Shown: piece after piece, positions 7,532 to 53,664 of the stretch | Numbering within the stretch: the first letter of the stretch is position 1 | Layout: every line of letters starts with the position of its first letter | Origin: a virus | Reading direction: 5' to 3' (one strand) | DNA: 64,000 nucleotides | Virus record (IMG/VR): IMGVR_UViG_3300046733_001096 | Coordinates: 1 to 64,000 of that record | Program-made: the position numbers and the translations under genes | The notes under the pieces: generated by a model | Told to the model about the DNA's origin: nothing | The model's input: the letters and a program-made list of their open reading frames with translations, nothing else | Database searches by the model: none

Positions 7532-7560
7532 TTTATATAGTGATTCGTTTTAAATGTCAA
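7532..7560 (-). promoter_or_regulatory. Early sigma70-type promoter with CGAATCA (GANTC) in the spacer
   Basis: TTGACA-N7-CGAATCA-N3-TATAAA, 17-bp spacer. Confidence 0.75.
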
Positions 7561-7563
7561 CCA

Positions 7564-8109
7564 TTATTTTACATATATTTTTAAAACTTCATATTCAATA
7601 ACATCATCACCACGAATTAGTTCAGCAACATCGCCTACTCTCAGTCCTAATAGTTCCTTACCAAGTGGAGATTTAAAACTAATGCTACCCTGTCCTGGAT
7701 TACTTTCAGTTTCACCAAGTATTGTATATGTTACAATTTTATCAACAAAATAGTTTTCTAGTTCGACTGTGACGCCAGGAATAATTTTCTCATATGTGCC
7801 AGGTTTGGGAATTTCTAGTATTGTGCTTTTTTCAATGATTGATTGTAGCCTAGAGATTTCGATATCAACCCGGTTCATTTCATCCAATGACATATGTAAT
7901 TCTTCATTTTCTTCAACGCCGCCATTTTCCCGGGCAGCCGAAAGCTGTTCTGCAATGATGGGTTTCTTTTTATTTAAAATTATAATTTTGTTTTCTAGAT
8001 CAGTACGACCATTTTTAGTTAATAAGTCCATATTTTTATTATATTCCTGATCATTATTATTGTCGGTATATTTATCGTTTTGTGCCGTTTTAAAGCCAGT
8101 AACAATCAT
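7564..8109 (-). CDS. greA: GreA/GreB-family transcription elongation factor (true start may be at MDLLTKNG)
   Basis: ARENG..EN coiled-coil tip; YTILGETESNP..GSISFKSPLGKELLG..VGD C-terminal domain. Confidence 0.85.
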   Translation of the reverse strand: MIVTGFKTAQNDKYTDNNNDQEYNKNMDLLTKNGRTDLENKIIILNKKKPIIAEQLSAARENGGVEENEELHMSLDEMNRVDIEISRLQSIIEKSTILEIPKPGTYEKIIPGVTVELENYFVDKIVTYTILGETESNPGQGSISFKSPLGKELLGLRVGDVAELIRGDDVIEYEVLKIYVK

Positions 8110-8528
8110 AGTAGTTCCTCTAGTTTAATGCTTTTTCTAATTTCTTCAAAATGTTTATAAAAGGTGTTTAGATCCCCATTACTTTTTTCATACGATTTTG
8201 TCTGACTTTCAAGTATTGCTGTCTCATATAACATTGTGAGTATTACCATATCATCAGCAAGATTCTTTTCACTTGGGTCATCACCCGAAGAATATAAATC
8301 TCCGACTAAAAAGGTTGCCATACGTGATGCAGGTGAATTATCTAGAATATATTCTAATTCATCGGGAATGCTTGTTGGCCATGGAACATCAATTGATTTA
8401 TTTTGACCAATTGAAAAATCATATGTTTCATTTATGATATCGTCCAAGTTTTTCCAAAAATCTTCTTCTAACATTTCATTGTTTTTTGCTTTAACAATAT
8501 CGCTGAAATTAATAATGTTATCAGTCAT
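8106..8528 (-). CDS. Hypothetical protein
   Basis: Overlapping start/stop with greA. Confidence 0.55.
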   Translation of the reverse strand: MTDNIINFSDIVKAKNNEMLEEDFWKNLDDIINETYDFSIGQNKSIDVPWPTSIPDELEYILDNSPASRMATFLVGDLYSSGDDPSEKNLADDMVILTMLYETAILESQTKSYEKSNGDLNTFYKHFEEIRKSIKLEELL

Positions 8529-8693
8529 TGTATTCTACCACCTTAGTATTTTTTTGTTTCCATATAGATGCGAATTGTTCAGCATCTTTTATATTATCAA
8601 ATATCTTAACTGTCAAATCCCAACAGTTCTCACTGTTATCTTCAGTTATATAAATCCAATCATCTTCTGCTAACTCTAATTTAACTGCATATT

Positions 8694-8885
8694 TCATCGT
8701 TTATTCTTTGTTTCTTGATTAATTCTAAAGTTAGTATAACTGGTATTCCATAGATTTAATATAAAGTATATACTCAATCCACCTACCACTGACATAAGAA
8801 TATTTCCAGTAAGTAATAGTCTAATGTTCATAAAAATAAAATCAGCAGCAAGAAATGCTACTGGATAATCATACCATCTAATCAT
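8694..8885 (-). CDS. Small membrane protein
   Basis: Hydrophobic 63-aa ORF in operon. Confidence 0.45.
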   Translation of the reverse strand: MIRWYDYPVAFLAADFIFMNIRLLLTGNILMSVVGGLSIYFILNLWNTSYTNFRINQETKNKR

Positions 8886-9045
8886 CTAAACTTCCTATCT
8901 ATCCATTTCTTTCCGACATATAATATCGCAATTACAAAGACAATAACACCTAGTAAAATGCTTTCTAATATTATATCACCTTGGCTACTATCAATTTCAA
9001 TACCGTCAGTTGTCACTGCTATTCTACAATCTTCGCAAGTATTAT

Positions 9046-9435
9046 TCATCGGCGCATACTTGCAATATCTTTTGCATCTTCTTTTTTATCTGCAAAGATA
9101 GGAACCATATTTGATTTGTGCATTGTAGCAATTCCAAGTAGTTGTCGTTCACCACTGTAGGTATGTGATTCTTTTGCAGGACCGTGTGATGCAATTTTGT
9201 TACTCAGTTCAACATTTGGCTTGTTCTCTGTATAATCAGGAATATGGCTCATGTGCTTGCGCTTGCCATATTTGTCATACAATTTCCCATCAAGTTGATC
9301 TTGACTTACACCCATCTTGCGCATAAACTTTTCGTGTTCTACTTCGGCTGCTATAAGTTTCTTTGATTTTTTCTTGACTTTGCGCTTACGTGTGTTTGTA
9401 GTATTGTAAGCATGTCCCATTAATTGCATTGTCAT
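9046..9435 (-). CDS. Conserved phage hypothetical protein
   Basis: C-terminal YSGERQLLGIATMHKSNMVPIF motif resembles small proteins of T4-like marine phages (recalled); promoter upstream at ~9471-9499. Confidence 0.65.
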   Translation of the reverse strand: MTMQLMGHAYNTTNTRKRKVKKKSKKLIAAEVEHEKFMRKMGVSQDQLDGKLYDKYGKRKHMSHIPDYTENKPNVELSNKIASHGPAKESHTYSGERQLLGIATMHKSNMVPIFADKKEDAKDIASMRR

Positions 9436-9601
9436 TATTATGCTCCGTAGTAAATTTGACTGTTGCCGTTAATGTATCATAACTGATTCTGATTGTCAAG
9501 AGTTAATTTTTAAAATACGTGCAGTTAATTTGAGTTAACTACCACTAAATACTGTTGAGAGAATAAAAATGAGAGAAACTAGTAATTACTAGGAGAGGGT
9601 A

Positions 9602-10063
9602 ATGATTGATCCAGTAACCGCCATTGGCTTGGCGACTACTGCTTTTAATGGTATTAAAAAAGCTATTGAAACAGGGAAAGAAATATCTGATATGGGGACG
9701 CAACTTGGGCAATGGGCAAAGGCCAAGTCCGACTTAGATTTTGCACACCAAAAAGCAAAAAACCCCCCACTATTCAAAAAAGTGCTTAGTTCTAATATAG
9801 AACAAGATGCCTTGGAAGCATGGGCACATAAGAAAAAGGCAGAAGAAATGCGTGAGGAATTACGGCAGTATATTTCTCTATATTATGGGCCATCGGCTTG
9901 GGATGAAATAGTAACTATAGAATCTAAAATGCGCAAACAACGTAAAGAAATGGTTTATGCTGCTGAAGAACGTAAAGAAATGATTTTTGCTTGGATCATA
10001 GGTGGTGGTATTTTTATATTCGCTGCTATTATTTTTGCTATCGGTGTATCATACATTACCTGA
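9602..10063 (+). CDS. Phage membrane-anchored coiled-coil protein (MIDP.TA family)
   Basis: Strong RBS GGAGAGG, CTAAATAC box at 9545-9552, C-terminal TM helix. Confidence 0.7.
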   Translation: MIDPVTAIGLATTAFNGIKKAIETGKEISDMGTQLGQWAKAKSDLDFAHQKAKNPPLFKKVLSSNIEQDALEAWAHKKKAEEMREELRQYISLYYGPSAWDEIVTIESKMRKQRKEMVYAAEERKEMIFAWIIGGGIFIFAAIIFAIGVSYIT

Positions 10064-10068
10064 TAAAC

Positions 10069-10461
10069 TTACTTACAAAGTCCTGCAATCATTTGATAAT
10101 GATTCCATGCTTGCTTTACTGATGGTAAGTTTTCTAAATCATCAACTGGGACTGCACAATCTAACCAAACATACGGAACTATTGGGAAACTATCGATTGA
10201 TCCTGAAGCACGTGGCATATGCAACTTTCCCAAATCATCTAATGTTATAACTAATTTTCTAAATTCATTTGGTAATTTGTCATATATATTACGTGATCCC
10301 TTGATACCATCTAAAAAAGAATGCCAAGCACGATCCCATTCACTTGTCTTTCTGGGATCAAATCTATATATCCTAACCATAATAACTAATACTTCGTCTG
10401 GCGTAACACGACCCTCGTATAAGTCAATTAGACATTGACTAAAATTCATTCCTATTTTCAT
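10069..10461 (-). CDS. Hypothetical protein, paralog of 10458..10865
   Basis: Shared C-terminus P.VK.AW.HYQ..AGLCK and similar N-terminus. Confidence 0.7.
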   Translation of the reverse strand: MKIGMNFSQCLIDLYEGRVTPDEVLVIMVRIYRFDPRKTSEWDRAWHSFLDGIKGSRNIYDKLPNEFRKLVITLDDLGKLHMPRASGSIDSFPIVPYVWLDCAVPVDDLENLPSVKQAWNHYQMIAGLCK

Positions 10462-10865
10462 TTACATAATCCTGCTAACAACTGGTAATGATCCCACGCT
10501 AGTTTCACTGCAGGTTCCATATCTTTTTCTCTTAAATTTATCTGATACCAATGAGCAGATGATGCCATAGTCTGAATTTCTATCGCTCTACTAGGATTAA
10601 CTTTATCTCTTGTAACAATAGTTCCGTTATCTTTTAACTCAACAATTAAATTATACACAGTATCATAATCGAACAAGTGCAATAAATTTTTACCTTGACT
10701 CCAGTGTACTGTCATTGGATCTAATTGATTATTCCACCAATTTTCTGCCATACTTGAGTTAGAGAAATTAATATTATAAGTTATAATTGAAAACACTTCG
10801 GAGATATCTACTTTTTCACAAAGTAAATCACTCACGCAAAATTCAAGATTTGTACCCAATATCAT
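10458..10865 (-). CDS. Hypothetical protein, paralog of 10069..10461
   Basis: Same shared motifs as 10069..10461. Confidence 0.7.
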   Translation of the reverse strand: MILGTNLEFCVSDLLCEKVDISEVFSIITYNINFSNSSMAENWWNNQLDPMTVHWSQGKNLLHLFDYDTVYNLIVELKDNGTIVTRDKVNPSRAIEIQTMASSAHWYQINLREKDMEPAVKLAWDHYQLLAGLCK

Positions 10866-11398
10866 CTTGTCAATTGTAACTCACTGTAAACTTCTTGGAT
10901 GCACATACTTTGTACTCTGCAATCTTCTAGTGCATTATGTGCTGCAAACTTAAACTTTTTACGAGGGTCTTCAGGCATTAAACCAAATAAGGTTCTACTA
11001 TCTCGTATGTTCCAGAATACCCAATTAAAGTGGGCATCATATTGCCTATATAAGTTTTCTAATATACATATATCAAAGACAGGGCCTTGACACCAAATTT
11101 TATCTGCACCAGTTAACCATTTATTTAACTCTTTTAGTGTGGTTTCAACACTTGTACGATTGTGATCGCCCAATGCTTCATCAACAATTTCATCGGGCTG
11201 TGTTCCCCACCACTGTAAAGTGTCAGATTCTATATCTCTGCCTTTAGAAGTTTGGTCTTCTATTTCTAACCTATAGTAAAACTCACTATGTGGATCTACT
11301 TTTGTAAATGGATCAAATTTGATACCACCGATAGTTAACACAACCGCATCTGGCTTTGTACTCAATGTTTCAATATCAATCGTTGCGTGTGTGGTCAT
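10862..11398 (-). CDS. DEDDh 3'-5' exonuclease (phage exonuclease/DUF5051-like)
   Basis: IDIETL, FDICILE, RDSRT, HNALEDC motifs. Confidence 0.85.
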   Translation of the reverse strand: MTTHATIDIETLSTKPDAVVLTIGGIKFDPFTKVDPHSEFYYRLEIEDQTSKGRDIESDTLQWWGTQPDEIVDEALGDHNRTSVETTLKELNKWLTGADKIWCQGPVFDICILENLYRQYDAHFNWVFWNIRDSRTLFGLMPEDPRKKFKFAAHNALEDCRVQSMCIQEVYSELQLTR

Positions 11399-12128
11399 CT
11401 ATACCTCTTAGTGTGTTATTCGTTTTTATAACTTGTCTTATGATATCACTGTCCGAAAATTCTAAAAATGCTTCTGTATCTTTGGGAAAACAATGTCCGC
11501 CGTATCCTAATCCACCTTCATCATTTGGTGCACTCATATGTGATGGACCAATATTTTCAAATTTGCTTAGAATACTTATCATACTTGAATGGTCATATAT
11601 ATCATTTAGTTGATTATATATTTCATGGAAGAACGCAACCTTTAAAGCAAGCCAATTATTGTGAACATATTTCACCATACTAGCAGTGCTACGATCTGTA
11701 TATATAAATTCTGCATTAGGAAGATAATTAAAAACTTGTTCCCATTTGTAGCATTGCATTTGATTGCCGCCAAGAATAAAATGAGTTTGGTTATCAAAGT
11801 CTTGTTGCGCAGAATTTGCTCTTATAAATTCTGGATTATATGTTACATTTTTCCCATATGTGTTTAACATTGATGGTATCACGGTAGACTTTAGAAGCAC
11901 AGAGAGGTCCCCTAATTGCGCTAGTACTGAAAGTATCATACTATCATCACACTTACCGTTAACAGTTGGCGTAGGCAAGCATACAATCGCTCCGCTTGCT
12001 TGTTCTAAATAATCTTCTATTTTATTATCATTGTATTTGGGATCAATACGAATGACATTGGTGCCATTATCTTCCAAACTTTTTGCTACTACTTCACCTA
12101 CATAACCACATCCAACAATGAGTATCAT
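11376..12128 (-). CDS. UDP-glucose/GDP-mannose dehydrogenase-like (lacks the C-terminal domain)
   Basis: GCGYVG, KSTV, NPEF, KYVHN..LALKV, GYGGHCFPKD. Confidence 0.85.
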   Translation of the reverse strand: MILIVGCGYVGEVVAKSLEDNGTNVIRIDPKYNDNKIEDYLEQASGAIVCLPTPTVNGKCDDSMILSVLAQLGDLSVLLKSTVIPSMLNTYGKNVTYNPEFIRANSAQQDFDNQTHFILGGNQMQCYKWEQVFNYLPNAEFIYTDRSTASMVKYVHNNWLALKVAFFHEIYNQLNDIYDHSSMISILSKFENIGPSHMSAPNDEGGLGYGGHCFPKDTEAFLEFSDSDIIRQVIKTNNTLRGIDDHTRND

Positions 12129-12406
12129 TTATCATCCTCTTTTAACTCTTGCAATGTTTTCTTTTCTCTAATTGCATCCTGCAAGTCTAAGACTTGTTCA
12201 TTCTCTATCATTTTTATAATAGTATTTGTTGTGCCAATCTCTTGCTGAACCATGCCCAACTTGAACATTAATTTTTCTAATTCTAACTGATAAAATTCAA
12301 GTTCTTTTTCTTTTAGAGCACGTTTTTCATAAATGTCTGCCAAATTAATAATTAATTTTGGTGTGGGTATTTCTATTTCTGTTTCAGGTTGTATTATTTT
12401 CTTCAT
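12125..12406 (-). CDS. Coiled-coil hypothetical protein
   Basis: ORF with RBS, operon context. Confidence 0.55.
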   Translation of the reverse strand: MKKIIQPETEIEIPTPKLIINLADIYEKRALKEKELEFYQLELEKLMFKLGMVQQEIGTTNTIIKMIENEQVLDLQDAIREKKTLQELKEDDK

Positions 12407-12437
12407 AATGAATTACTCCTATTACTATTAGTAATTA

Positions 12438-12668
12438 TCATTTTTTTAAAATAGCCCACATCTCCTCAATTTTATGATTTTTAATATATTCATCTTCATT
12501 GGCATATGTGCTTGTTTGTTTTAATTTTTCTTCAACATACCATAAAATTTGATATAATTCTTTTTTGGCATGCCAACAATTGTATCCATCCATAGCGTGG
12601 TTACTTTCTTGAAATGCAATCTTATCTATTTCATTCTTAATACACTGTAAATCCCAATCCGTAATCAC
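12438..12668 (-). CDS. Hypothetical protein
   Basis: GTG start overlapping the DHFR stop. Confidence 0.5.
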   Translation of the reverse strand: MITDWDLQCIKNEIDKIAFQESNHAMDGYNCWHAKKELYQILWYVEEKLKQTSTYANEDEYIKNHKIEEMWAILKK

Positions 12669-13144
12669 AGTCTAGACCACACATCAACATACACACCATC
12701 TTTATGTCCACTTTCAGTCAATGTGAAATTCTCTTCAATCAACGTGCTGGGCAAAAAGGTATCACAATCATATGATCCACGAATGCGGCTCAAATGAAAT
12801 TCATCAATAATTGAAAATAATCCCATAACTAATTTTGCACCACCTATGATCCAAACATCCTGCAGTTTATTCATGTTGGTAAGTTCAGTTGCAGCTTTAT
12901 CAAACTTAATATAATGATATCCGCCCTTATCTTTGTCCTGTTCACTACTGGTAACGACAATATTATTACGATTGGGCAATGGCTTTATGGGCAAACTATC
13001 CCATGTACTTTTTCCCATCGCTATAACGCAACCAGTTGTAGTATCTTTAAACCACTTCATATCAGCAGAATTATGTGGCCACGGAAGCCCACCATCTTTG
13101 CCGATACCCCAATTTTCATCGCATGCTAGTATTACTCTAATCAA
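12665..13144 (-). CDS. folA: Dihydrofolate reductase
   Basis: GIGKDGGLPW, MGKSTWDSL, PLPNRNNIVV, IIGGA, CDTF. Confidence 0.95.
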   Translation of the reverse strand: MIRVILACDENWGIGKDGGLPWPHNSADMKWFKDTTTGCVIAMGKSTWDSLPIKPLPNRNNIVVTSSEQDKDKGGYHYIKFDKAATELTNMNKLQDVWIIGGAKLVMGLFSIIDEFHLSRIRGSYDCDTFLPSTLIEENFTLTESGHKDGVYVDVWSRL

Positions 13145-13383
13145 TGATACGTTCTCCCTTTAATAATACCCAATTGGTTTTGTCTAAAATCTGTTACTAA
13201 TTTTAATACAGCATCTATCTGGTTTGGTAATTCATCACTATCTTCTAAATGATATGGAAGTTGAATACATCTTATGTCACCATCAATATCAAATATAAAT
13301 GCATAGTCAGTAGAATCTAAATCACTCTCTTCAGCCAACCGTGTAATTTTATATTCCTTCAGCATGTTTTTGTTTTTACTCAT
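13141..13383 (-). CDS. Hypothetical protein
   Basis: Operon context. Confidence 0.5.
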   Translation of the reverse strand: MSKNKNMLKEYKITRLAEESDLDSTDYAFIFDIDGDIRCIQLPYHLEDSDELPNQIDAVLKLVTDFRQNQLGIIKGRTYH

Positions 13384-13696
13384 TGATTAAACTACTCCAG
13401 AGTTTTAATTTATTTCGCTTAACTTCTATTCTATCACGTAAATCGGCATCTGTCAATAGTCCATGTTCTACCATTAATTCAATCATACATAAAACATCGC
13501 CTGCCTCTTCTATAAGTTTATGATCCCATTTTTCATTAACTTCTTTTTTGTCACTATACTTACGAATGTGCTTCATACACACTTGTGTTAGTTCCCCACA
13601 TTCTTCTGAGGTAATAGCCATTAACTGTTGATATGTATTTATTGGTGTATTATTCATCCGAATATTGCCAGAACTATAATAATTAATAAAATCCAT
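13376..13696 (-). CDS. MazG-like NTP pyrophosphohydrolase (start probably at MNNTPIN)
   Basis: EECGEL...EEAGDV motif. Confidence 0.8.
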   Translation of the reverse strand: MDFINYYSSGNIRMNNTPINTYQQLMAITSEECGELTQVCMKHIRKYSDKKEVNEKWDHKLIEEAGDVLCMIELMVEHGLLTDADLRDRIEVKRNKLKLWSSLINE

Positions 13697-13808
13697 CCCA
13701 ACAAATTTTCTCCATCAACAAGACCTTTCTTTTTAGCACAATTATAACAGTATCTATATTTCTTTGGTGTTTTATTACTGCAAAAAAATGCATCACACGT
13801 TTTTTTAC

Positions 13809-14264
13809 TCATTTGTATGCCTTTCCAAATCCTTCTACATATAATCTATGGGTTTCAATAAACTTCCATACATTGAAATCATTGAATTTTCCATACATTC
13901 TCGCACCACGATCTCTACGTTCAAATGCAGATAATATATCATCTGATTTGTTGTCGTATAGTTCTAGTTTACCAGATAAGGTAACACGTGCATTATTCAT
14001 TTCAGTTTTATGTCTATTTTCTCCAGCGAAATAAAGTGAAACATTCTCACTGATAGTTTTAATATTAGTGGTGTGTTGACTCAAATCACTTAGCAACAAA
14101 TATATATTATCATCATCTAATAATACTGGCGTAACTTTTGATATCTCTGGAAACTTTTTACCAGTTGTGGCCATGGCAGCTTGTTGATAGTATACTAGTA
14201 AGTTCGCCACCTCGTCCTTAACTGTTTCAATATCATGATACATCAGTTTGTCTTCGTTTTCCAT
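13809..14264 (-). CDS. Pyridoxamine 5'-phosphate oxidase/HugZ-like split-barrel protein
   Basis: LLSDLSQHTTNI...VSL, ARVTLSG, DF, YVEGFGKAY. Confidence 0.75.
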   Translation of the reverse strand: MENEDKLMYHDIETVKDEVANLLVYYQQAAMATTGKKFPEISKVTPVLLDDDNIYLLLSDLSQHTTNIKTISENVSLYFAGENRHKTEMNNARVTLSGKLELYDNKSDDILSAFERRDRGARMYGKFNDFNVWKFIETHRLYVEGFGKAYK

Positions 14265-14402
14265 CGCTTACACCAGTTCCTACTACCTTTTTACTTCCAC
14301 AATTCTTACAATAACTTATATTAACAACAAAATTTAACCCATCAGCATTGATTATCTGGCAGGTTTTGCTTAATTCTAAATTCATACAACAATGCATAAT
14401 AC

Positions 14403-24564: not shown

Positions 24565-24751
24565 ATTATTATTCCTTTGCTTTTTTTTATTTTAAGATTA
24601 ATCTTATTTGTATTTTCCATCAATGTCATAATATGCGGAATTATATATTGCCCAAGATATACTATTATGTATTTTGTGTTCTTGTTTTCTTAACTTTTTA
24701 TACCATTGTGAGTAAAGTATAACACGTTTTTTCATTATTGTCAACAATTTT

Positions 24752-30480: not shown

Positions 30481-30528
30481 TTTATCTCCCAGTAATTAAT
30501 ATAATGTATTTATTTAATAATGTCAATA

Positions 30529-31533: not shown

Positions 31534-32790
31534 TTATAATTTTTGTTTAACCTTCGCTTGTTCATCGAATACCAATATTGGTTCTTCATTTCCTAAAATA
31601 AATTCATCTGTAATATGTACAGAACGTAGTCCTTGATTTGCCAATTTTGGCAATTTGAATTGTATTTGTAAAAGTGATTTTTCAATTACACTTCTCAATC
31701 CTCGAGCGCCCGTTTCATCTGTTGTTGCTTTTCTCGCAATCTGGTTTAGCGCCGAATCTGAAATGATTAATTCTACACCATCAAGTTTAAACAATTTTTC
31801 AAACTGTGCAACAATACTATTTTTAGGCTCAGTTAATACTTGTACTAACTGATTTTCAGTGAGAGCATCAAGGCCAACAATAATTGGAAATCTTCCCATA
31901 AATTCTGGGATGACTCCATATTTTATTACATCCTGTGCTTCTACTTGCTCACGGATATTTATCTTATTTGTCGATTTATCATACACAACAGCACCAAAAC
32001 CAATACCTGCATTGGATGTTATTCTACGTTCAATAACTTTATCAATGCCAACAAATGCGCCACCAACTACAAATAGAATTTTACTTGTATCAACTTCAAT
32101 CATATCAGTGCCTGGGTGCTTACGTCCGCCCCCAGGCGGAACACGAACAACTGAGCCTTCTACAATTTTAAGTAGTGCTTGTTGAACACCTTCGCCACTA
32201 ACATCTTTTGTGATTGAAATATTTTCGCCTTTTTTCGCTTTCTTATCAATTTCATCAATATATATAATACCACACTCGGCTTTTTTAACATCAAAATCTG
32301 CTGCCATAAGCAATTTCTGTACTACATTTTCTACATCGTCGCCAACATATCCACTTTCAGTAAGTGATGTTGCATCAATTTGTGCAAATGGCACATCTAA
32401 AAATTTTGCAACTGTTTTAGCAAGTAATGTTTTACCAGTACCAGATGGTCCCATAACCATTACATTGGATTTATCCAATTCAACGCCATCAGAATCATCA
32501 GCGTTTATACGTTTGTAATGATTATATACTGCCACACTAAGGACTTCTTTAGCTTCGTCTTGTCCAATAATGTGCGCATCTAAGAATTCTTTAATATCTT
32601 CCGGTCCAGGAAGAGAACTCATATCCGTTTCGCTTGTAGTGGCAAACTTTTCTTTTGAGTCATGTATGATTTCATAGCATAAGTCAACACACTCATTGCA
32701 AATAAACTGATTTGGTCCAGCAATGAGTGTTTTAACTATATCCTTTTCTTTGTTACAAAATGAACAAGTATAATCTTTAGTATCAGTCAA
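31534..32790 (-). CDS. clpX: ATP-dependent Clp protease ATP-binding subunit
   Basis: CSFC..C..C zinc domain, GPSGTGKT, GYVG pore loop, DEIDK, RKHP, IGF loop, TGARGLR. Confidence 0.96.
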   Translation of the reverse strand: MTDTKDYTCSFCNKEKDIVKTLIAGPNQFICNECVDLCYEIIHDSKEKFATTSETDMSSLPGPEDIKEFLDAHIIGQDEAKEVLSVAVYNHYKRINADDSDGVELDKSNVMVMGPSGTGKTLLAKTVAKFLDVPFAQIDATSLTESGYVGDDVENVVQKLLMAADFDVKKAECGIIYIDEIDKKAKKGENISITKDVSGEGVQQALLKIVEGSVVRVPPGGGRKHPGTDMIEVDTSKILFVVGGAFVGIDKVIERRITSNAGIGFGAVVYDKSTNKINIREQVEAQDVIKYGVIPEFMGRFPIIVGLDALTENQLVQVLTEPKNSIVAQFEKLFKLDGVELIISDSALNQIARKATTDETGARGLRSVIEKSLLQIQFKLPKLANQGLRSVHITDEFILGNEEPILVFDEQAKVKQKL

Positions 32791-34999: not shown

Positions 35000-35389
35000 T
35001 TAACTACCTGTTACAAGTTCAAGTGTACCATCTTCACCAAACTCAAAATCTTCGATATAAGAATGATGTGTGCCACTTTGTTTGATACATGATTCAGCAG
35101 CAGCCCATAATGCCTTGATTGAGCCATTTACTGCAAGAGAACTAACTTGCATCATTGTGTTGTTAGTGCCATTACGCAAATCTGCGTTAATTTCTTCAAC
35201 AGTCGCATCAGGACGAACAAACTCATAAGTTACTTTACGAACTTTATTAGAGAACAATTCAAACTCAGGACCCTTTGTACCGAATTCATACATACTCCAA
35301 ACAGTTGTCATACCAAGTTCTTCTTGCATTGCAAAGAAATGATCCATTGCGATAGTGAATTCATCGATTTGTGTTTGTGAATTTGTCAT
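35000..35389 (-). CDS. Early hypothetical protein
   Basis: Follows the GANTC-type promoter; RBS AAGGA. Confidence 0.6.
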   Translation of the reverse strand: MTNSQTQIDEFTIAMDHFFAMQEELGMTTVWSMYEFGTKGPEFELFSNKVRKVTYEFVRPDATVEEINADLRNGTNNTMMQVSSLAVNGSIKALWAAAESCIKQSGTHHSYIEDFEFGEDGTLELVTGS

Positions 35390-35419: not shown

Positions 35420-35448
35420 TTTATATAGTGATTCGTTTAAGATGTCAA
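35420..35448 (-). promoter_or_regulatory. Early promoter with CGAATCA spacer element
   Basis: TTGACA-N7-CGAATCA-N3-TATAAA. Confidence 0.75.
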
Positions 35449-43181: not shown

Positions 43182-43214
43182 ATTGTTTTCCTTTGTGTTT
43201 ATGTGTGTGTGTAG

Positions 43215-43481
43215 TGTAACTATTCTGTTGCTAGGTCAGTTACCAACCCCCACGTGCTTAAATTAAGCCGCTAATGCCATTTCTGGCGCATAATTTGCGT
43301 TTGCAATTATAAAGTTTGTTCGCGGTAACGGCGCTTACATCCCGGTAACTCCATTCATCTATCTTGTCAGTCGATCCTAGTTCAGCCCCATCAAAAGCAC
43401 ACTTATCTAAATGTGTTTATGGTGGAGCTGCGCGGTACTGCCCCGCGGTCCTGTCCAATCATCAAATCACTTCAACGTTAC
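43215..43481 (-). ncRNA. ssrA: Circularly permuted (two-piece) tmRNA; tag ANANYAPEMALAA at 43263-43304
   Basis: T-arm CGCGG-GGCAGUA-CCGCG and CAGCUCCACCA (ends 43420) precede a 30-nt spacer and the GGGGCUGAA..GAUCGAC end (43389); resume context AUAAUU-GCAAAC; tag ends LAA-stop. Confidence 0.93.
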
Positions 43482-43487
43482 ATTCTA

Positions 43488-43516
43488 TTTATAACATATT
43501 TTAATAGCGTTGTCAA
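43488..43516 (-). promoter_or_regulatory. tmRNA promoter (sigma70 plus overlapping TATAAATA box)
   Basis: TTGACA-N17-TATAAATA. Confidence 0.75.
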
Positions 43517-43519
43517 TAG

Positions 43520-43547
43520 AAAAGGCAGTGCGTCGATTCACTGCCTT
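43520..43547 (-). terminator. Terminator after 43554..44525
   Basis: AAGGCAGTG-N8-CACTGCCTT plus U-tract. Confidence 0.7.
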
Positions 43548-45203: not shown

Positions 45204-45207
45204 TCAT

Positions 45208-45903: not shown

Positions 45904-45949
45904 TTCTGTTCCTCACTTATATAGATTATTATATCTATTTATAAGCAAT

Positions 45950-45984: not shown

Positions 45985-46004
45985 TAATTTATAACTTTAT
46001 TATA

Positions 46005-46778: not shown

Positions 46779-46925
46779 TATTATATTTCCTTTTAAACAA
46801 AAAATATGAGCAGGTATTAACTGCTCATACTACTCTACTTATACTAATATAATACATTTTTGCTTAATTATCAAGAGGGTATGAAACTAATACTGACGAT
46901 TGTGTTATTTATATCACACCTTAAA

Positions 46926-47177
46926 TTATGCTTTTGTTTTTTTCTTTGCCTTGGGTTTTGCCTTAGATTTAGTTTTGGTGGCTATCTTTTTTGGTTTAGT
47001 AGTTGATATGATTTTTTTATCATACCAACCCCACCGTTTTAATAATGGTTCAACCGCGTGTTTAACCTGCGAATCGTTCCAATTATATAACTTTTTGACA
47101 TCATTAAAAAGTTTATCTTTATCATCATAGATATCTATCATATTAATAATGTTTTTATCTATGTCTATCCAATTCAT
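46926..47177 (-). CDS. Small protein with Lys-rich tail
   Basis: ORF coupled to the upstream small ORF. Confidence 0.55.
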   Translation of the reverse strand: MNWIDIDKNIINMIDIYDDKDKLFNDVKKLYNWNDSQVKHAVEPLLKRWGWYDKKIISTTKPKKIATKTKSKAKPKAKKKTKA

Positions 47178-47329
47178 TCAGATTTCCAGATAGTCCAGAT
47201 GCCATAAGCAATCGCTGCATACGCAATTAAATCAACTGGTACAATAAGCATTGCGATCCCAGTTGCAACCAATGCAGCACCGTCGAGTGTTGTACGTTCT
47301 TTTAGTCTATTTTTAATCCAATTAATCAT
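47174..47329 (-). CDS. Small membrane protein, holin-like (51 aa, not in ORF track)
   Basis: MINWIKNRLKERTTLDGAALVATGIAMLIVPVDLIAYAAIAYGIWTIWKSE; RBS GAGGAG. Confidence 0.55.
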   Translation of the reverse strand: MINWIKNRLKERTTLDGAALVATGIAMLIVPVDLIAYAAIAYGIWTIWKSE

Positions 47330-48251
47330 TTTTTTTCTCCTCTAATAATTTATTATAAAATAGTTCTTCATCTGGACAATTATTATGTTCAATTTGAATA
47401 GTTGTATGTACTATTTTATAATTATCGATTAACAGTTTCTTGGTATTATATATTGTATCATCACATTCGCCATCATCCAATATATTAATGTGCATAGCGG
47501 CTGAAATTTGCCCGCTTGCTAATTCCCATATATGTATATGGTGAACATTATTAACATGATCCACATTTGTCATAATGTCTTTTACTATAACATCAATGTC
47601 GATATGTTCTGGTTTTCCAGTCATTAGTATTCTAATACAATCTTTTAATAATTCCCATCCACTTTTTAATATTAAACTGGCAAGGACTACACTTATAATA
47701 GGATCAATATAATACCAATCAGTAAAGTATATAACAATACCACCAATTATAGCACCGACACTGCCTAAAATATCAAGTAAGATATGAAGTATCACCCCAC
47801 GCATATTGATATTGTGTCCATCATGATGATGATGCACTACTTTAAATAATATCAAATTAACGATTAGTCCAGTGATTGCGATTGGCAACATCCAATATAT
47901 ATCAACCATTTCAGGATTTAATATTCTATATATTGCTTCATATATTATATACGCAAATAGTCCTATCCACATTAACGCATTTAAAAATGCAGCAATAACT
48001 TCCGCTCTCATAAATCCATATGAGTATGTTTCAGTTGGTGGTTTGCGACCTATCCAAAATCCAAATACTGCGATAATCATTGCCAATGCGTCAGTTGAAA
48101 GATGTAATGCATCACTTAGTAATGCAAGTGAATTACTTATATGAGCACCAAATAATTCAATGACAACAAACATTACTAAAATTAAAATGCTTATTTTTAG
48201 TGCACGTTCTTCTTTGCCTGCTTTTCTGATATGATACTGATTATGTTTCAT
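47322..48251 (-). CDS. Cation diffusion facilitator (CzcD/ZitB-like)
   Basis: SLALLSDALH..TD, YGFMRAE, His-rich loop, HILLDILGS, HHIHIW, HTTIQIE. Confidence 0.92.
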   Translation of the reverse strand: MKHNQYHIRKAGKEERALKISILILVMFVVIELFGAHISNSLALLSDALHLSTDALAMIIAVFGFWIGRKPPTETYSYGFMRAEVIAAFLNALMWIGLFAYIIYEAIYRILNPEMVDIYWMLPIAITGLIVNLILFKVVHHHHDGHNINMRGVILHILLDILGSVGAIIGGIVIYFTDWYYIDPIISVVLASLILKSGWELLKDCIRILMTGKPEHIDIDVIVKDIMTNVDHVNNVHHIHIWELASGQISAAMHINILDDGECDDTIYNTKKLLIDNYKIVHTTIQIEHNNCPDEELFYNKLLEEKKND

Positions 48252-49164
48252 TAGTTTTTTTCTTTATATTATATAGTTCTCTGATACCATTTTCAATACT
48301 GATAGATGGGCTCCATCCAAGAAGTTTACTTGCTTTAAATATGTCAGCAAGTGTTTCACTCGCATATCCTTTGGGTTTCTCTTGATATTCTATTTCTAGA
48401 TTAGGAAAAAACTCTCGCAATATTTCAACTACTTGATTTACAGAAACGTTTTCTCCTGTCCCCACATTAAAAATTTCACTCTTTACTTTAGATTCCATAC
48501 TTGCAATACATGCACGTGCTACATCACTAACGTGTATGTAATCTCTTCTATATTCACCATCACCGTGGACTGTCAATGGTGTATTTTCATTAGCCATGCG
48601 ATAAAATCTACTAATCATTAATCCATTGGTATCATCCGATGGCTGTTCATCGCCATATACTGTGAAAAAACGCAATACATTATAATTTAGTCCAAAAACG
48701 TTTTTATATTGTTTACACAATTGCTCACCAAATAACTTAGTCATTGCATAATAATTTAATGGATCAGGTTTATGAAATGGTTTATGAGGTATGGGATTAT
48801 TTCCATATATACTTGATGAACTTGAAAACACAAATTTACGAATTCCCACCGCGTGTGATGCAGTCAACATATTACGTGTTCCAGTAACATTTATATCAAA
48901 ATATAAGTCCGGATCAATAAAACTATCTGGTATTCGTGTCTTTGCTGCCAGATGAATAACAAAATCTTTGCCAGCAGTTGCCATTATGCACTTGGCGGCA
49001 CTTTGTATGTCGCCCTTAATATACTTTACCATTTTAAAATCATTGGGCTTTTCAGCAATGTCCAAAACAGTTACTTCATAACCTTTTCTTAATAATTGCC
49101 TGACAACTTCTCTGCCCACAAAACCAGCGCCGCCAGTTACAAGAACTTTACCTTTTGCTAACAT
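48241..49164 (-). CDS. NAD-dependent epimerase/dehydratase
   Basis: TGGAGFVG, HLAA, SSSSIYG, YAMTK, RFFTVYG, RDYIHVSD. Confidence 0.92.
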   Translation of the reverse strand: MLAKGKVLVTGGAGFVGREVVRQLLRKGYEVTVLDIAEKPNDFKMVKYIKGDIQSAAKCIMATAGKDFVIHLAAKTRIPDSFIDPDLYFDINVTGTRNMLTASHAVGIRKFVFSSSSSIYGNNPIPHKPFHKPDPLNYYAMTKLFGEQLCKQYKNVFGLNYNVLRFFTVYGDEQPSDDTNGLMISRFYRMANENTPLTVHGDGEYRRDYIHVSDVARACIASMESKVKSEIFNVGTGENVSVNQVVEILREFFPNLEIEYQEKPKGYASETLADIFKASKLLGWSPSISIENGIRELYNIKKKTNET

Positions 49165-49279
49165 ATGAATTCTTTCTTAATTTCTTGATTCAACATATTT
49201 AGTCTATTAACGTTTGTATCATTATAACAGAATAATAACCAAATAGCAAGCATTATTTAACTTGACGGAGTGTCACAGT

Positions 49280-49354
49280 TGCACTACACGCATACCGAGT
49301 CTTCGCAAAATGCAGTTGTTTTTAGTGTTTTTTAGTGTTATATTACTATAAATA
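49280..49354 (+). promoter_or_regulatory. Promoter with tandem LysR-type T-N11-A boxes plus a TATAAATA box
   Basis: TGC-N7-GCA (49280-92), TTC-N7-GCA (49302-14), TTGTTT-N17-TATATT, TATAAATA 49347-54. Confidence 0.55.
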
Positions 49355-49454
49355 AAAGTGTAAGATAAGCGACCTCAGCTTATAAAAAATGAGTGGCACT
49401 GGGAAAGACTAGGGTATTGCTTCCCTCAAGCATCAAACAATTTGGAGAAACTGA

Positions 49455-49649
49455 ATGACACTAAACCTATTTAGTGCCCTAGCAAATCTTTTTGGAGGAT
49501 TTCCTAATAGGGCAACAAAACGCTCAGACTTAATGACTTGGGCAAAAACAGAGTATGCACGTGATTGGGAATTTGCTTACCAATACATGCTTGATAACAG
49601 TGGCAAAGCGCCATCACACAGACACACACAAGGAATAACACATGATTAA
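49455..49649 (+). CDS. Small protein (TWAKTEY..DW.FAYQ motif)
   Basis: RBS GGAG; first gene of the plus-strand operon. Confidence 0.65.
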   Translation: MTLNLFSALANLFGGFPNRATKRSDLMTWAKTEYARDWEFAYQYMLDNSGKAPSHRHTQGITHD

Positions 49650-49878
49650 TAAACTAGTAATAGCATACAAAAATTTTAGAACCGAAATGGATTATAGAAA
49701 GAAAGTTCGTACAACAATCAAAGAACTGTCTGCACTTTCAAACTATGAACTAAATGATATCGGAATTTCACGTGGTGAAATATATAATATTGCAATCACA
49801 TCATATAATAAACCAGAACGTCTAGTAGTTGAAGATATTGAAATAACAGTAAATGAAAATCTAAGAGGGGCAGTATAA
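49642..49878 (+). CDS. DUF1127 (YjiS-like) small protein
   Basis: R.T..EL..LS..EL.DIGISRGEI signature. Confidence 0.88.
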   Translation: MINKLVIAYKNFRTEMDYRKKVRTTIKELSALSNYELNDIGISRGEIYNIAITSYNKPERLVVEDIEITVNENLRGAV

Positions 49879-50054
49879 TGACTACATTAGTAATGGAATA
49901 TACGGTAAATCCTTTTTGGAATGCTCTTAAAGTATTTGGTCGTGGCACATGGAACTTCTTAGAGTCAGTGGGATATGCAAGAGCCGCTGCTGAACTACAT
50001 CGTCAAGGCTTCTACAAAGAAGCTAAAGACTTGATGTTAATGGACAGGAGTTGA
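49878..50054 (+). CDS. Small protein (58 aa, not in ORF track)
   Basis: [58 protein letters not shown]; TAATG coupling, RBS GAGGGG. Confidence 0.7.
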
Positions 50055-50058
50055 TACA

Positions 50059-50283
50059 ATGACAGGTGATATAGCAACTATGGGCGCAATGATTGGCGCC
50101 GGACTAGCAACATTAGGAATGGGTGGTGCTGCAATCGCAGTAGGAATTATTGTCGGTAGTGTATTTAAAGTTATGCCTAAAAAGCCTGACAACGGAACAA
50201 TGTTTATTGGTGTTGCATTTGCAGAAGCATTAGGTATCTTTGCATTCTTAGTAGCACTACTACTAATGTTTGCAGTTGTATAA
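50059..50283 (+). CDS. atpE: F0 ATP synthase subunit c homolog with altered loop
   Basis: [18 protein letters not shown] helix; [26 protein letters not shown] with the proton-binding Glu; RBS AGGAG. Confidence 0.88.
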
Positions 50284-50504
50284 TGGTTGGTGAACAACAT
50301 ATGGAAATATCAGCACAAGTAGTGCAGAAGTTAGGTTTCTATATGTTTGTGATAATGACTTCACTACTAATAATATGCATAGGATTTGGTTTCTATGCAG
50401 TAATTGATAAGTTCAAAGAACCAAATTGGAAAGAGGCATGCCTTGAAAAGGGTGGAGTACCAGTTCAACTAGATAAATCAATGTTTGATTGTAAAGGAAT
50501 ATAA
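50283..50504 (+). CDS. Single-TM small protein with C-terminal Cys pair
   Basis: TAATG coupling to atpE; ACLEKGG...FDCK. Confidence 0.6.
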   Translation: MVGEQHMEISAQVVQKLGFYMFVIMTSLLIICIGFGFYAVIDKFKEPNWKEACLEKGGVPVQLDKSMFDCKGI

Positions 50505-50505
50505 T

Positions 50506-50640
50506 ATGTTAAAAAGATTTGTAAAAGCAATGGAATACCGTTCATACTGTATGGCAATTCGTGAATTACGCAACAAAGGCTTATATAAAGAAGCACAACG
50601 TGTCAGTGAATATAAGCACAATATGTATCCTACTACTTAG
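50506..50640 (+). CDS. Small protein (44 aa), similar to 49878..50054
   Basis: MLKRFVKAMEYRSYCMAIRELRNKGLYKEAQRVSEYKHNMYPTT; RBS AAGGA; shared Y..A..EL...G.YKEA. Confidence 0.6.
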   Translation: MLKRFVKAMEYRSYCMAIRELRNKGLYKEAQRVSEYKHNMYPTT

Positions 50641-50654
50641 TAGTATGATCGAAG

Positions 50655-50906
50655 TTAATTAGGACCAGCAATGAAATGTAGTTTGAGCATTATGCCTTCT
50701 ACATCTGCTGGTTCAAGATAAGGTATAACATCATCTCCGGTATGTATACCAGGTAGTTGAACAAAATTATTATCCTTGAACACTGCAATTTCATAAAGTT
50801 TTTTGCCTGGTTCTTGAATCACACTCAAATCATAATTACCAAAAGACCGTTTGGCTTGAAAGTGTTGCGGTCGTATTTCATTAAATTGTAAATCACAAAA
50901 ATTCAT
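50655..50906 (-). CDS. Hypothetical phage protein
   Basis: LSVI...LYEIAV...DDVIPYL pattern. Confidence 0.55.
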   Translation of the reverse strand: MNFCDLQFNEIRPQHFQAKRSFGNYDLSVIQEPGKKLYEIAVFKDNNFVQLPGIHTGDDVIPYLEPADVEGIMLKLHFIAGPN

Positions 50907-51114
50907 CTAACGTATCCTCAAATTTTTCTTCTATTAATTTAATATGCTTGCATTTTTTAAATGCCGGGCAATCACAAGTAAACCCCTTATCAGTCATTTT
51001 AATTGTATATATATTACCCTTGCTGCCTGATACATACCATTCAGTATCAACTGCCCAATGACCCTTAGTATTAATCAGGTCACTGGGAAATATACGTGGT
51101 CCATACTTTGCCAT
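50893..51114 (-). CDS. SWIM zinc-finger protein
   Basis: GSKGNIY...CDCPAFKKCKHI. Confidence 0.75.
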   Translation of the reverse strand: MAKYGPRIFPSDLINTKGHWAVDTEWYVSGSKGNIYTIKMTDKGFTCDCPAFKKCKHIKLIEEKFEDTLDEFL

Positions 51115-51455
51115 TATATAGTTTCAAATCCAAAGTTTGCTACAACTGAACGATTGCCATCAGCATCTTCAATAATATTTCCAACTGAAATACTAGACAT
51201 TTTTCCAAACCGCTCAATACGATCTTCTGGTCCAATATTTCCTACTTCAAAAACATGATCAAGGCTGTCAGCAATAATGTTTGCAACATGAGTATAACAT
51301 TCATCAAATTTCATAGCAGCCTCTTTAAAATTTCCAAATGTGGCATCTGCATATGCAGTTGCTTTTTCGTGACAATTCCAGCCCTCTTTATTAACTAGTT
51401 CTACTAGTTTTTCATCTAATTGAATTTGATAAACTTTGAAAACTTGAACTGACAT
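51114..51455 (-). CDS. YodL-like early protein
   Basis: KVYQI...LDHVFEVGN...SSISVGNII...GF. Confidence 0.55.
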   Translation of the reverse strand: MSVQVFKVYQIQLDEKLVELVNKEGWNCHEKATAYADATFGNFKEAAMKFDECYTHVANIIADSLDHVFEVGNIGPEDRIERFGKMSSISVGNIIEDADGNRSVVANFGFETI

Positions 51456-51486
51456 ATGAGATTTCCTTGTTGCTATCTATACATTC

Positions 51487-51515
51487 TTTATAGACTGATT
51501 CGTTTGAATTGTCAA
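51487..51515 (-). promoter_or_regulatory. Early promoter with CGAATCA spacer element
   Basis: TTGACA-N7-CGAATCA-N3-TATAAA. Confidence 0.75.
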
Positions 51516-51538
51516 GTATTATTTCACACTTTTAAATA

Positions 51539-51724
51539 TTAAGCCTCGTCAATTAGAGTAAAATATTCCTCTTCATCTTTGCTCAAGTAAATCGCATCAA
51601 AAAGATTTTCTGGCACAACGCCTAGACCAACTGCACGACGAGTTTGACAATAGTGTGCATAATCTTCACACTCTTTAATTTCTGGTAGATATGGGTGTGA
51701 TGAAACGATGATTTCTTGTGTCAT
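51539..51724 (-). CDS. Early hypothetical protein
   Basis: Preceded by a TTGACA-N17-TATAAA promoter at ~51756-51784. Confidence 0.5.
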   Translation of the reverse strand: MTQEIIVSSHPYLPEIKECEDYAHYCQTRRAVGLGVVPENLFDAIYLSKDEEEYFTLIDEA

Positions 51725-51780
51725 GTGATTCTCTTTCTTGTTAACTTATACATACTTTATATCAGTCGTATGTTAGGTTG

Positions 51781-52032
51781 TCAAGCAAAAAGTGGTTGCA
51801 TTGTTTCGAAAACTTTGTTGTAAGCATTAACTTCTGCTTCATAGTATTCATAAAAATCTGAGTCGTCAGTAAAATGTGCATGGTCACAATTATAACTGGC
51901 ACAATGTTCATCCCATACACGATTCATTGCTTCCATGCCTTCAAGCAAATCGCCACGACCATAAGAAGTCATTACTGTTTTAGCATCTTCAAAGGTAGTA
52001 TCAAACTTATAAAAACTAGGGATTCTAAACAT
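51781..52032 (-). CDS. Early hypothetical protein
   Basis: RBS GGAG; GANTC-type promoter upstream. Confidence 0.6.
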   Translation of the reverse strand: MFRIPSFYKFDTTFEDAKTVMTSYGRGDLLEGMEAMNRVWDEHCASYNCDHAHFTDDSDFYEYYEAEVNAYNKVFETMQPLFA

Positions 52033-52065
52033 ATTACATTCTCCGTTTTCTCAACTTATACATTC

Positions 52066-52094
52066 TTTATAAAGTGATTCGGTTAGAATGTCAA
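52066..52094 (-). promoter_or_regulatory. Early promoter with CGAATCA spacer element
   Basis: TTGACA-N7-CGAATCA-N3-TATAAA. Confidence 0.75.
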
Positions 52095-52101
52095 GTAAAA
52101 A

Positions 52102-52926
52102 CTAAGAAAAAATATTGTTTATATTGCCTTCAAATATAAAATGTCCAGTGTGGTCTAATTTTACCAAAGGATCAAGCCATATCTTACCATCAAGATTTTG
52201 CCATCGTCTACAAAACGCATAGTCTTCTGATAGATATCTTTTTGTATCAGGTTCTAGATATGTATCAAAGAATAAGTATGTCCATTTTGCAAACTCTGGA
52301 TCCATATTCAAATCATTATTAAAATAAAGATCGGGATATTCTTCAATCATTTTTATAATTACTTCACGCTTAATTAGCATGAAACCAGTTGCCGCATCTT
52401 TTAACTCTGTAAGACCATCTGTCATTTGTATTTGTGGTTCATCGCCGTCTAGATTATATCTAAAATTAAGTGCATAGTTTGAACCAACTGAATTTAATAA
52501 GTTTGCATCAATTGATGTATTATTTACAACATTATGTTTTATATTATTCCAGTTCAAATCTTTTTTAGGATATGCACCAACAATAATATCTTTATCATGT
52601 TGTAGCATATGTAAGATATCAAGTGCATCAAAATTTATATCTGCATCAATAAACATCATATGTGTTGCTTCTGGATTAGCCATGAAATATGCTACCATAT
52701 GACATCTAGCACGTGATACTAAACTTTCGTTTGCACTAGTAGTCAGGGAGTATGGTATTTCATGTTTTGTGAACATCATATGTGCACGTGTCCATGATCT
52801 AAAAAACGGTTCTGTTACCTGTCCTCCATAGCAAGGAGTACAGTAATGAACATGTGTTTTTCTTATGAAATCTAAATCAATTTCTTTTCTAAATTGCAGG
52901 CAATGTTCTAATGCGCTATTGTTCAA
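52102..52926 (-). CDS. GT-A fold glycosyltransferase-like protein
   Basis: TPCYGG, NESLVSRAR, FIDADI (DxD), GAYPKK, TGFMLIKR, LSEDYAFC. Confidence 0.8.
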   Translation of the reverse strand: MNNSALEHCLQFRKEIDLDFIRKTHVHYCTPCYGGQVTEPFFRSWTRAHMMFTKHEIPYSLTTSANESLVSRARCHMVAYFMANPEATHMMFIDADINFDALDILHMLQHDKDIIVGAYPKKDLNWNNIKHNVVNNTSIDANLLNSVGSNYALNFRYNLDGDEPQIQMTDGLTELKDAATGFMLIKREVIIKMIEEYPDLYFNNDLNMDPEFAKWTYLFFDTYLEPDTKRYLSEDYAFCRRWQNLDGKIWLDPLVKLDHTGHFIFEGNINNIFS

Positions 52927-52986
52927 TTTTTATCCGCTTCATCAATTTATAGTTATATTATATTATACACGATTCTAAAGTATTTG

Positions 52987-53664
52987 TCAACTTCTTTGAT
53001 CTTTAATCCAGTTCTTGGCCTGTGGCATAGATGGGGACTTAACTAAAAATTTATCAATTGCTCTATCAACTTCTAAGAAATTTGATTTACGTTCTGGATC
53101 TTCTAGGCCACCAGAGTTATCAACAATATGAAAATTTCCTGCGCCGAATAACTGCTGAAACTTCATAAGATTCTGCTGTACTGCTTGCCACATCTTAGTC
53201 ACTTGTTGTCTTGGTAAACTTCTAGGACGATTTTCATTGCGCTCTTGTGCGACATCTTCACTTGTATTAACAAATAACATCATTGTTTCATAGCCAAGTT
53301 CTTTTAATTGTTCATTTGCTTTTTGAACTTTTGCTACATCTTTGCCAGTGCCATCAATAATAAGTCCTAGACGGCCTTCGATATGCAATTGTTGTTTATT
53401 CTTTGTAATCTGTTTTGCACGATTACGAATTTCTTGTCCTTCATCAGAATAGATATCATCTGGAGTCAATTCTTTTCCTGCTTTATCCATCATATATTCA
53501 TAAATGTCATCTGAATTTACTGTTCTGAGACCAGTTCCTTTGAGCATCTTATTAGCAACAAAACTTTTGCCACTGCCAGGGCCGCCTGCCAGAAATACGG
53601 CTTTGAAAATATGAGGATCATTCACACCCTCTTCAATTGATTGTAGGATTTCATTGACACGCAT
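52987..53664 (-). CDS. P-loop kinase (zeta-toxin/AAA_33-like) with acidic leader
   Basis: AGGPGSGKS, VNSDD, IIDGTG, RN..R.R; late box at 53693. Confidence 0.75.
   Translation of the reverse strand: MRVNEILQSIEEGVNDPHIFKAVFLAGGPGSGKSFVANKMLKGTGLRTVNSDDIYEYMMDKAGKELTPDDIYSDEGQEIRNRAKQITKNKQQLHIEGRLGLIIDGTGKDVAKVQKANEQLKELGYETMMLFVNTSEDVAQERNENRPRSLPRQQVTKMWQAVQQNLMKFQQLFGAGNFHIVDNSGGLEDPERKSNFLEVDRAIDKFLVKSPSMPQAKNWIKDQRS

Follow-up and report, generated by a model that had tools for sequence, protein, structure and literature searches.

A GcrA-type box at a fixed position in the spacer of sigma70-like promoters of marine phages

We analysed a 64,000-nucleotide stretch of viral DNA (hereafter the window), the first 64 kb of the 78,946-bp IMG/VR virus record IMGVR_UViG_3300046733_001096 (G000), and found that a class of its sigma70-like promoters carries the heptamer CGAATCA (TGATTCG on the opposite strand; hereafter the box) at a fixed place in the spacer between the -35 and -10 hexamers. 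GcrA and the DNA methyltransferase CcrM form an alphaproteobacterial cell-cycle module that acts on cellular promoters, and TGATTCG is the word that GcrA prefers. The box keeps its sequence, orientation and register in phages that have almost no genes in common, and an alpha-type tmRNA gene in this phage and in four relatives points to alphaproteobacterial hosts. With moderate confidence, we propose that host GcrA is recruited at the spacer box of these host-type sigma70 promoters.

Boxed promoters of the window

Exact matches to TTGACA-N7-CGAATCA-N3-TATAAA, an arrangement that a first-pass annotation of the window had reported at four sites, are indeed present at 7532–7560, 35420–35448, 51487–51515 and 52066–52094, all on the minus strand, which holds nearly all genes of this approximately 35% GC genome (TGATTCG lies on the plus strand at 7541, 35429, 51496 and 52075). 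The pattern matched 0 of 100 dinucleotide shuffles of the window (0 expected), and a fifth exact copy lies beyond the window at genome positions 72655–72683 (minus strand). The first copy (7532–7560) precedes a 209-aa endolysin-like ORF (6868–7497, minus strand; phrog_938), the start codon of which is 63 nt from the start of the -35 hexamer. The other three head ORFs of 129 aa (35000–35389, no known function; promoter followed by GAGTGTATAAGTT), 113 aa (51114–51455; predicted +1 at approximately 51480) and 83 aa (51781–52032).

Two further promoters that had been described as carrying GAATC in the spacer at other offsets are both real. The one at 52962–52990 (minus strand), TTGACA-N8-AGAATCG-N2-TATAAT, has the box one base closer to the -10 (GAATC at spacer positions 10–14), and its opposite strand, CGATTCT, is compatible with YGAKTCK, the broader GcrA consensus. 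The one at 9471–9499 (minus strand), TTGACA-ATCA-GAATC-AGTTATGA-TACATT, has GAATC at spacer positions 5–9 (centre approximately -23; opposite strand TGATTCT).

The boxed promoters carry housekeeping-sigma elements (cTTGACA, a 17-bp spacer and TATAAA) and lie in short gaps between co-directional genes. Alphaproteobacterial sigma70 promoters typically follow CTTGAC-N17-CTATAT and are not known to conserve a T at -7, which would fit the cTTGACA and TATAAA or TATACA elements seen here. Of eight sites measured, seven have the start codon 59–64 nt from the start of the -35, whereas an uncertain ORF call gives 31 nt for the copy at genome 72655. The downstream genes are mostly small and have no known function. 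A second, boxless promoter class (24716–24744, 30498–30526 and 43488–43516) tends toward a TGn extended -10 (TGT or TGC before the -10 hexamer), where the boxed promoters have CTa.

Sequence, orientation and register of the box

Taken alone, TGATTCG shows no significant excess across the window (9 copies versus 5.6 expected); the signal is its fixed place inside promoters. The full pattern occurs in at least 114 IMG/VR stretches, and 106 unique sites gave the logo wwW..cTTGACA-wtctaaA-CGAATCA-CTa-TATAAA-G-nnn-GTATA. Because this set was chosen by the pattern itself, we made three unbiased checks.

First, five further records (G001–G005) were searched by the promoter flanks alone, leaving the spacer free. 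This search recovered 24 sites (in G004, G005 and G001), with CGAATCA in 20 and GAATC with one altered flank in two more. Second, we took a census of sigma70-like promoters in G000 and its close relatives G004 and G005, requiring a 17-bp spacer and an ORF start 45–95 nt downstream. Among the 65 candidates, GANTC started at spacer position 9 in 24, at position 10 in three, at position 5 in one and nowhere else, compared with approximately 0.2 sites per spacer position expected from base composition. All 22 unique boxed sites read GAATC, with C (20 sites) or A (2) at -22 and A (21) or G (1) at -16, and so match YGAKTCK on the opposite strand (last K, G in 20 and T in 2; Y, T in 21 and C in 1). 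The three genomes are related and syntenic, so the counts cannot be taken as independent.

Third, control patterns of equal information content were searched across IMG/VR. Compared with the original pattern, the reversed box (TGATTCG on the coding strand) was found in two stretches, CGA[C/G/T]TCA in none, the box moved one base away from the -10 (-1) in three and the box moved one base towards the -10 (+1), which is the register of 52962–52990, in 27. These controls define the element by its sequence, its orientation and a register with a tolerance of approximately 1 bp. As GAATC is the sole GANTC form used, the element behaves like the binding site of a sequence-specific protein and not like just any CcrM site. 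At IMG/VR loci L176–L202, we also observed a promoter family of the form TTGACATTTACCTG-CGAATCA-GC-TATAAA, with the box one base closer to the -10; in this family the reverse complement, TGATTCG, stands directly before the start codon (ggtGATTCGaaATG), giving an inverted pair of boxes approximately 45 bp apart.

Spread across unrelated phages

The box is retained under varied -10 hexamers and leaders (TATAAA, TATAAC, TATATT, TACATT and TATACA). In G004 and G005 it stands in promoters with TATAAC-taannagtaatca and in others with TATATT or TACATT followed by aattaagtaatca, and G003 (45% GC) has 19 copies, mainly with TATACA. Nine diverse records (29 to 342 kb, 30–46% GC) were tested, and all nine hold several boxed promoters, always on one strand, with no match to a reversed-pattern control in any of them. 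Among them are a 46-kb genome that is complete and has terminal repeats, a 29-kb genome with a completeness rating of 95%, and three larger ones (202, 285 and 342 kb). Of the 84 ORFs of the 46-kb phage, only 4 have counterparts in the 380 kb of G000, G004 and G005 (three with Pfam matches, to PhoH, glutaredoxin and an XkdF-type protease with ChaB, and a fourth without), and the 29-kb phage has a single ORF in common with them, a methylase domain. With almost no common genes among the boxed phages, no common phage-encoded reader is visible, and a host-encoded reader is the economical reading.

Correspondence with known GcrA sites

The Caulobacter GcrA motif is TGATTCG (the top-ranked MEME consensus) or, more broadly, YGAKTCK, and GcrA sites in regulated promoters cluster near -20 and from +2 to +30 (Haakonsen 2015, PMC4647560). 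A crystal structure of GcrA on TGATTCG shows contacts to all seven bases (Wu 2018, PMC5887438). Upstream GcrA boxes are centred at -20 ± 1 and -30 ± 2, and in the PcsM complex the spacer holds GAATC at -22 to -18, where the GcrA DNA-binding domain sits across the DNA from the polymerase (Wu 2023, PMC9976885). All five copies in G000 are exactly the top-ranked word, in agreement with the earlier claim that these promoters embed the GcrA-preferred site.

Counting from the predicted +1, with the -10 hexamer at -12 to -7, the phage GAATC falls at -21 to -17 (centre -19) on the non-template strand. This predicted register lies within the -20 ± 1 range of published upstream boxes and within 1 bp of the PcsM box, the sole upstream GcrA box that has been solved structurally. 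The minor +1 and rare -1 registers bracket the same interval, and the rare flank variants of the phage box are those that Y and K permit.

A boxless sister promoter with the same -35, -10 and leader (51756–51784, minus strand; element 51727–51784) has AGAATCA at approximately +19 to +23 (51727–51731), right before the ATG of a 61-aa ORF. All four boxless TATAAA-GTATGYATA promoters (two loci and their orthologues) have AGAATCA starting at +18 or +19. The downstream position within the +2 to +30 range of GcrA, and also within the narrower +5 to +30 range given for downstream boxes, is suggestive, the independent cases being few and the word overlapping the ribosome-binding region.

The phage and its host lineage

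G000 is an uncultured marine giant phage, with the gene content of a large marine phage: it encodes Mtd_N tail-fibre-like proteins, ClpX (31534–32790, within the window), ClpP (genome 73958–74644, outside it), an M17 peptidase, a GMP-reductase-like enzyme, a DnaB-like helicase and a primase. The record has an estimated completeness of 31%; G004 (155 kb) and G005 (146 kb) are each rated approximately 40% complete, and the full genome should therefore measure roughly 360 kb. Neither a DNA search nor a promoter-sequence search for cultured relatives gave anything above chance. The nearest protein matches, at approximately 25% identity, are to T4-like cyanophages and to Pelagibacter and Methylophilales phages, and many seawater metagenomes hold near-identical copies of the G000 sequence.

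A permuted alpha-type tmRNA gene lies at 43213–43520 (minus strand; ARAGORN tag peptide ANANYAPEMALAA) and scores 128.9 bits over the full Rfam alpha_tmRNA model. Five of 15 related records carry the same RNA family, among them the more distant G001, G407 and G413. The gene is not part of the boxed promoter class, as its own promoter (43488–43516) is boxless with a TGT extended -10. The presence of this alpha-type tmRNA in the phage and its relatives points to alphaproteobacterial hosts. One alphaproteobacterial genome of 1.1 Mb and 26% GC encodes a GcrA with the recognition helix TKNAIIGKIHR, which differs from that of Caulobacter at one contact residue (R33K).

Small plus-strand genes form an island at 49455–50640 of the window, among them one for an AtpE-like c-subunit (50059–50280); a protein atlas search for the host with this AtpE-like protein resolved no finer than phylum. 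In two metatranscriptome runs, contig depth was highest over the island, reaching 162 at 50170–50403. RNA-library contigs from three studies cover 49.0–53.9 kb of the window and not 53.9–56 kb. One of them ends at 51478, 2 nt from the predicted +1 (approximately 51480) of the promoter at 51487–51515, and one over the upstream gene stops at 52096, directly before the -35 of the promoter at 52066–52094; as contigs cannot show transcript ends, levels or absence, we take these ends as a weak hint.

GANTC composition and the phage methylase

GANTC is depleted in the window (121 observed versus 160 ± 13 expected from shuffles), with observed-to-expected values of 0.57–0.68 in coding and 0.91–1.74 in intergenic DNA of G000, G004 and G005. 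In each of the three genomes, GANTC ranks first among 24 XYNZW pentamers in intergenic-to-coding ratio, a bias that resembles the one published for CcrM-bearing Alphaproteobacteria; other pentamers are equally depleted in coding DNA. A putative tRNA gene cluster at G004:27000–28800 and G005:30300–32600, recognized solely by T-loop-like GGTTCGANTCC words, raises the 'intergenic' GANTC counts of these two relatives through those words.

A phage-encoded GcrA, which had been raised as a possible reader, was not found: PF07750 had no match in more than 3 Mb of sequence made up of G000, five large relatives and 43 other records, so the reader would have to be host-encoded. The phage does encode a beta-class N6/N4 DNA methyltransferase of 288 aa (genome 71037–71903, L007:7037–7903, minus strand; PF01555, 112.7 bits; DPPY motif aligned with that of CcrM), located downstream of the fifth boxed promoter and conserved in G004 and G005. 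The gene has a promoter of its own (TTGATA-N17-TATAAT), and its start codon lies within ATGAATCA.

CcrM is the best solved relative of this enzyme. Judged by its score, its loops and a missing C-terminal domain, however, the methylase is not the CcrM orthologue that had been raised as a possibility. It scores 95.5 bits against an NCBIfam equivalog cut-off of 830 for CcrM, covers profile positions 4–255 of 350, and measures 288 aa versus the 358 aa of CcrM, without the C-terminal DNA-binding domain. We assessed the CcrM recognition residues of Loop-2B and Loop-45 (R44, P45, G39/G40, K118, M122, P123 and R129) and found that they are not preserved as a set: the alignment places D at R44, T at P45, Y at K118, V at M122, S at P123 and K at R129, and Loop-2B is two residues shorter than in CcrM. 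No such methylase was found in the near-complete boxed phages G001, G002 and G423. As no phage CcrM orthologue is present, methylation, if relevant, must come from the host.

Proposed recruitment of GcrA and alternative explanations

The earlier proposal that transcription of the phage plugs into a GcrA/CcrM circuit agrees with the word, orientation and register of the box, its conservation across phages and the alpha-type tmRNA; the variant in which the phage supplies GcrA or CcrM is not supported. In the mechanism that we favour, host sigma70-type RNA polymerase would use the promoters with cTTGACA, a 17-bp spacer and TATAAA. GcrA, a monomeric sigma70-bound alphaproteobacterial cofactor, would ride on sigma70 domain 2 while its N-terminal domain docks into the CGAATCA major groove (template strand TGATTCG) from the side away from the polymerase, with a centre near -19 or -20. 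By analogy with Caulobacter PcsM, docking would stabilize both the binding of the polymerase and the formation of the open complex. Methylation of the GANTC core would fall to host CcrM, the phages having no orthologue of that enzyme.

Several observations weigh against recruitment of GcrA. The lineage also conserves A-23, C-15, T-14, G-6 and GTATA at the start, which GcrA does not explain, and CGACTCA is never used although the Caulobacter consensus also permits TGAGTCG. The boxed architecture was not found in the SAR11 myophage HTVC008M, and the Caulobacter phages phiCbK and CcrColossus have no excess of TTGAC-N9-GANTC. The stringent architecture gave two matches versus one control match in 401 sampled alphaproteobacterial genomes, and no corresponding class of host promoters was seen there. 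The intergenic GANTC excess comes largely from the promoters themselves and, in the relatives, from tRNA T-loops. As for the host, the tmRNA gave only short, weak matches in the 401 alphaproteobacterial genomes, and ClpX did not single out a host, the phage copy being approximately 50% identical to those of bacteria of many phyla. The early timing of the class is suggested solely by promoter type and gene size, and an endolysin-like gene behind one boxed promoter is odd for a supposedly early class; the transcription start sites, likewise, are predicted positions.

Among the alternatives, the one that survives best, although we think it unlikely, is that some other sequence-specific protein binds at the box in the spacer, for example a phage-encoded repressor or activator of early genes or a host factor other than GcrA, and that the identity of the box with the GcrA word is coincidental. 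Such a protein would account for the conservation beyond the heptamer (A-23, C-15 and T-14) and for the use of only one of the central bases that GcrA permits; most phage genes have no known function, so an unrecognized DNA-binding protein could be among them, and the alpha-type tmRNA points to a host lineage, not to a species. A phage-encoded reader is nevertheless difficult to reconcile with the same box and register in phages that have almost no common genes, and an asymmetric heptamer at -19 that faces away from the polymerase suits a monomeric GcrA-like reader, not the usual dimeric operators. This explanation also requires that the exact TGATTCG, the Y and K flank variants and the -20 register all be coincidence.

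We find it more doubtful still that the box needs neither an extra factor nor methylation, being either carried along passively in a mobile promoter cassette that recombination spreads or an intrinsic polymerase-contact or DNA-shape element. Promoter-early stem-loop (PeSL) cassettes of T4-type phages combine a strong sigma70-like promoter with a terminator stem-loop and recur between small ORFs as recombining copies (Arbiol 2010, PMC2839356), and the boxed promoters behave likewise in several respects. They are repeated strong sigma70-like promoters before small genes without known function, with the geometry of 59–64 nt from -35 to start codon noted above for seven sites. A strong GC-rich terminator hairpin with a T-run (GGGCGCTTCGGCGCTCTTTTT, -18.8 kcal/mol; genome approximately 72684–72720, L007:8684–8720, minus strand) directly adjoins the -35 of the copy at genome 72655, and similar hairpins lie upstream of some boxed copies in G004. 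In addition, a related strain is represented by an RNA-library contig in which 51503 is joined directly to 51774, so that the -35 of one promoter copy is followed by the box and -10 of its neighbour and the 61-aa ORF between the two is lost; the joint looks like recombination between promoter repeats.

The likeness to PeSL cassettes has limits, as their definition in the abstract of that report includes no conserved spacer box, and here the element is common to unrelated phages and most copies have no hairpin (none that is convincing upstream of the four window copies). A passive cassette would also not explain why the heptamer stays constant while N7, N3, the -10 hexamer and the leader vary, or why it persists in unrelated genomes of 30–46% GC. 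Moreover, sigma70 spacers are not normally so constrained, and the sister cassette that lacks the spacer box has a downstream box. Finally, it is highly improbable that the GANTC core is a target of the phage methylase for self-marking or anti-restriction and lies in promoters incidentally: the enzyme is encoded downstream of the fifth boxed promoter and has CcrM as its best solved relative, but it scores approximately 95 bits against a cut-off of 830, differs in its recognition residues, has no C-terminal domain and was not found in three near-complete boxed phages, and a methylase target needs no fixed register, single orientation or single central base.

Implications and relation to known systems

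If recruitment of host GcrA is correct, abundant and varied marine phages (29 to approximately 360 kb) have converged on or exchanged a cis-element that recruits a host cofactor, the element provides a sequence signature with which to predict alphaproteobacterial hosts of uncultured phages, and phage gene timing is tied to host replication state or DNA methylation. We put forward only as a low-probability idea that diverse marine alphaproteobacterial phages use host CcrM and GcrA as a sensor or clock across the ocean, so that methylation would time the switch from early to late transcription or the cell cycle would gate the onset of infection. The boxed promoters might fire only in cells that hold GcrA, that is, in replicating cells; alternatively, firing might require methylated parental DNA, in which case early transcription would cease by itself on replicated genomes that are unmethylated. 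If they work in this way, the boxed promoters would be a directly testable case of epigenetic control over phage transcription, for which a Caulobacter in vitro system exists.

A literature search found no description of GcrA boxes in phage promoters. Related systems include the CtrA-box 'lytic deferment' promoters of alphaproteobacterial phages (site TTAA-N7-TTAA), reported in a study that also scanned alphaproteobacterial phage genomes with a GcrA matrix and saw no positional asymmetry in the predicted GcrA sites (Mascolo 2022, PMC9437464). Like the boxed promoters, these are phage cis-elements that couple phage expression to an alphaproteobacterial cell-cycle regulator, although both regulator and site differ. 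A link between alphaproteobacterial phages and GcrA is also known from phiCbK-like Caulobacter phages, which encode GcrA homologues (Gill 2012, PMC3556154); those phages carry the protein, whereas the phages described here carry the site, with no GcrA gene found.

The closest likeness is to the PcsM-type GcrA promoters of Caulobacter, which have the same heptamer in the same strand orientation, with the spacer box within 1 bp of -20. In both, each promoter has one asymmetric box, and an alternative downstream position falls within +2 to +30. The boxed promoters differ in being phage rather than cellular and in their near-perfect AT-rich -35 and -10 hexamers, compared with the GC-rich elements of Caulobacter. 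As candidate GcrA sites, the phage boxes use central T alone on the strand that GcrA reads, and they are much more uniform and frequent than those of Caulobacter, occurring in approximately one-third of candidate promoters.

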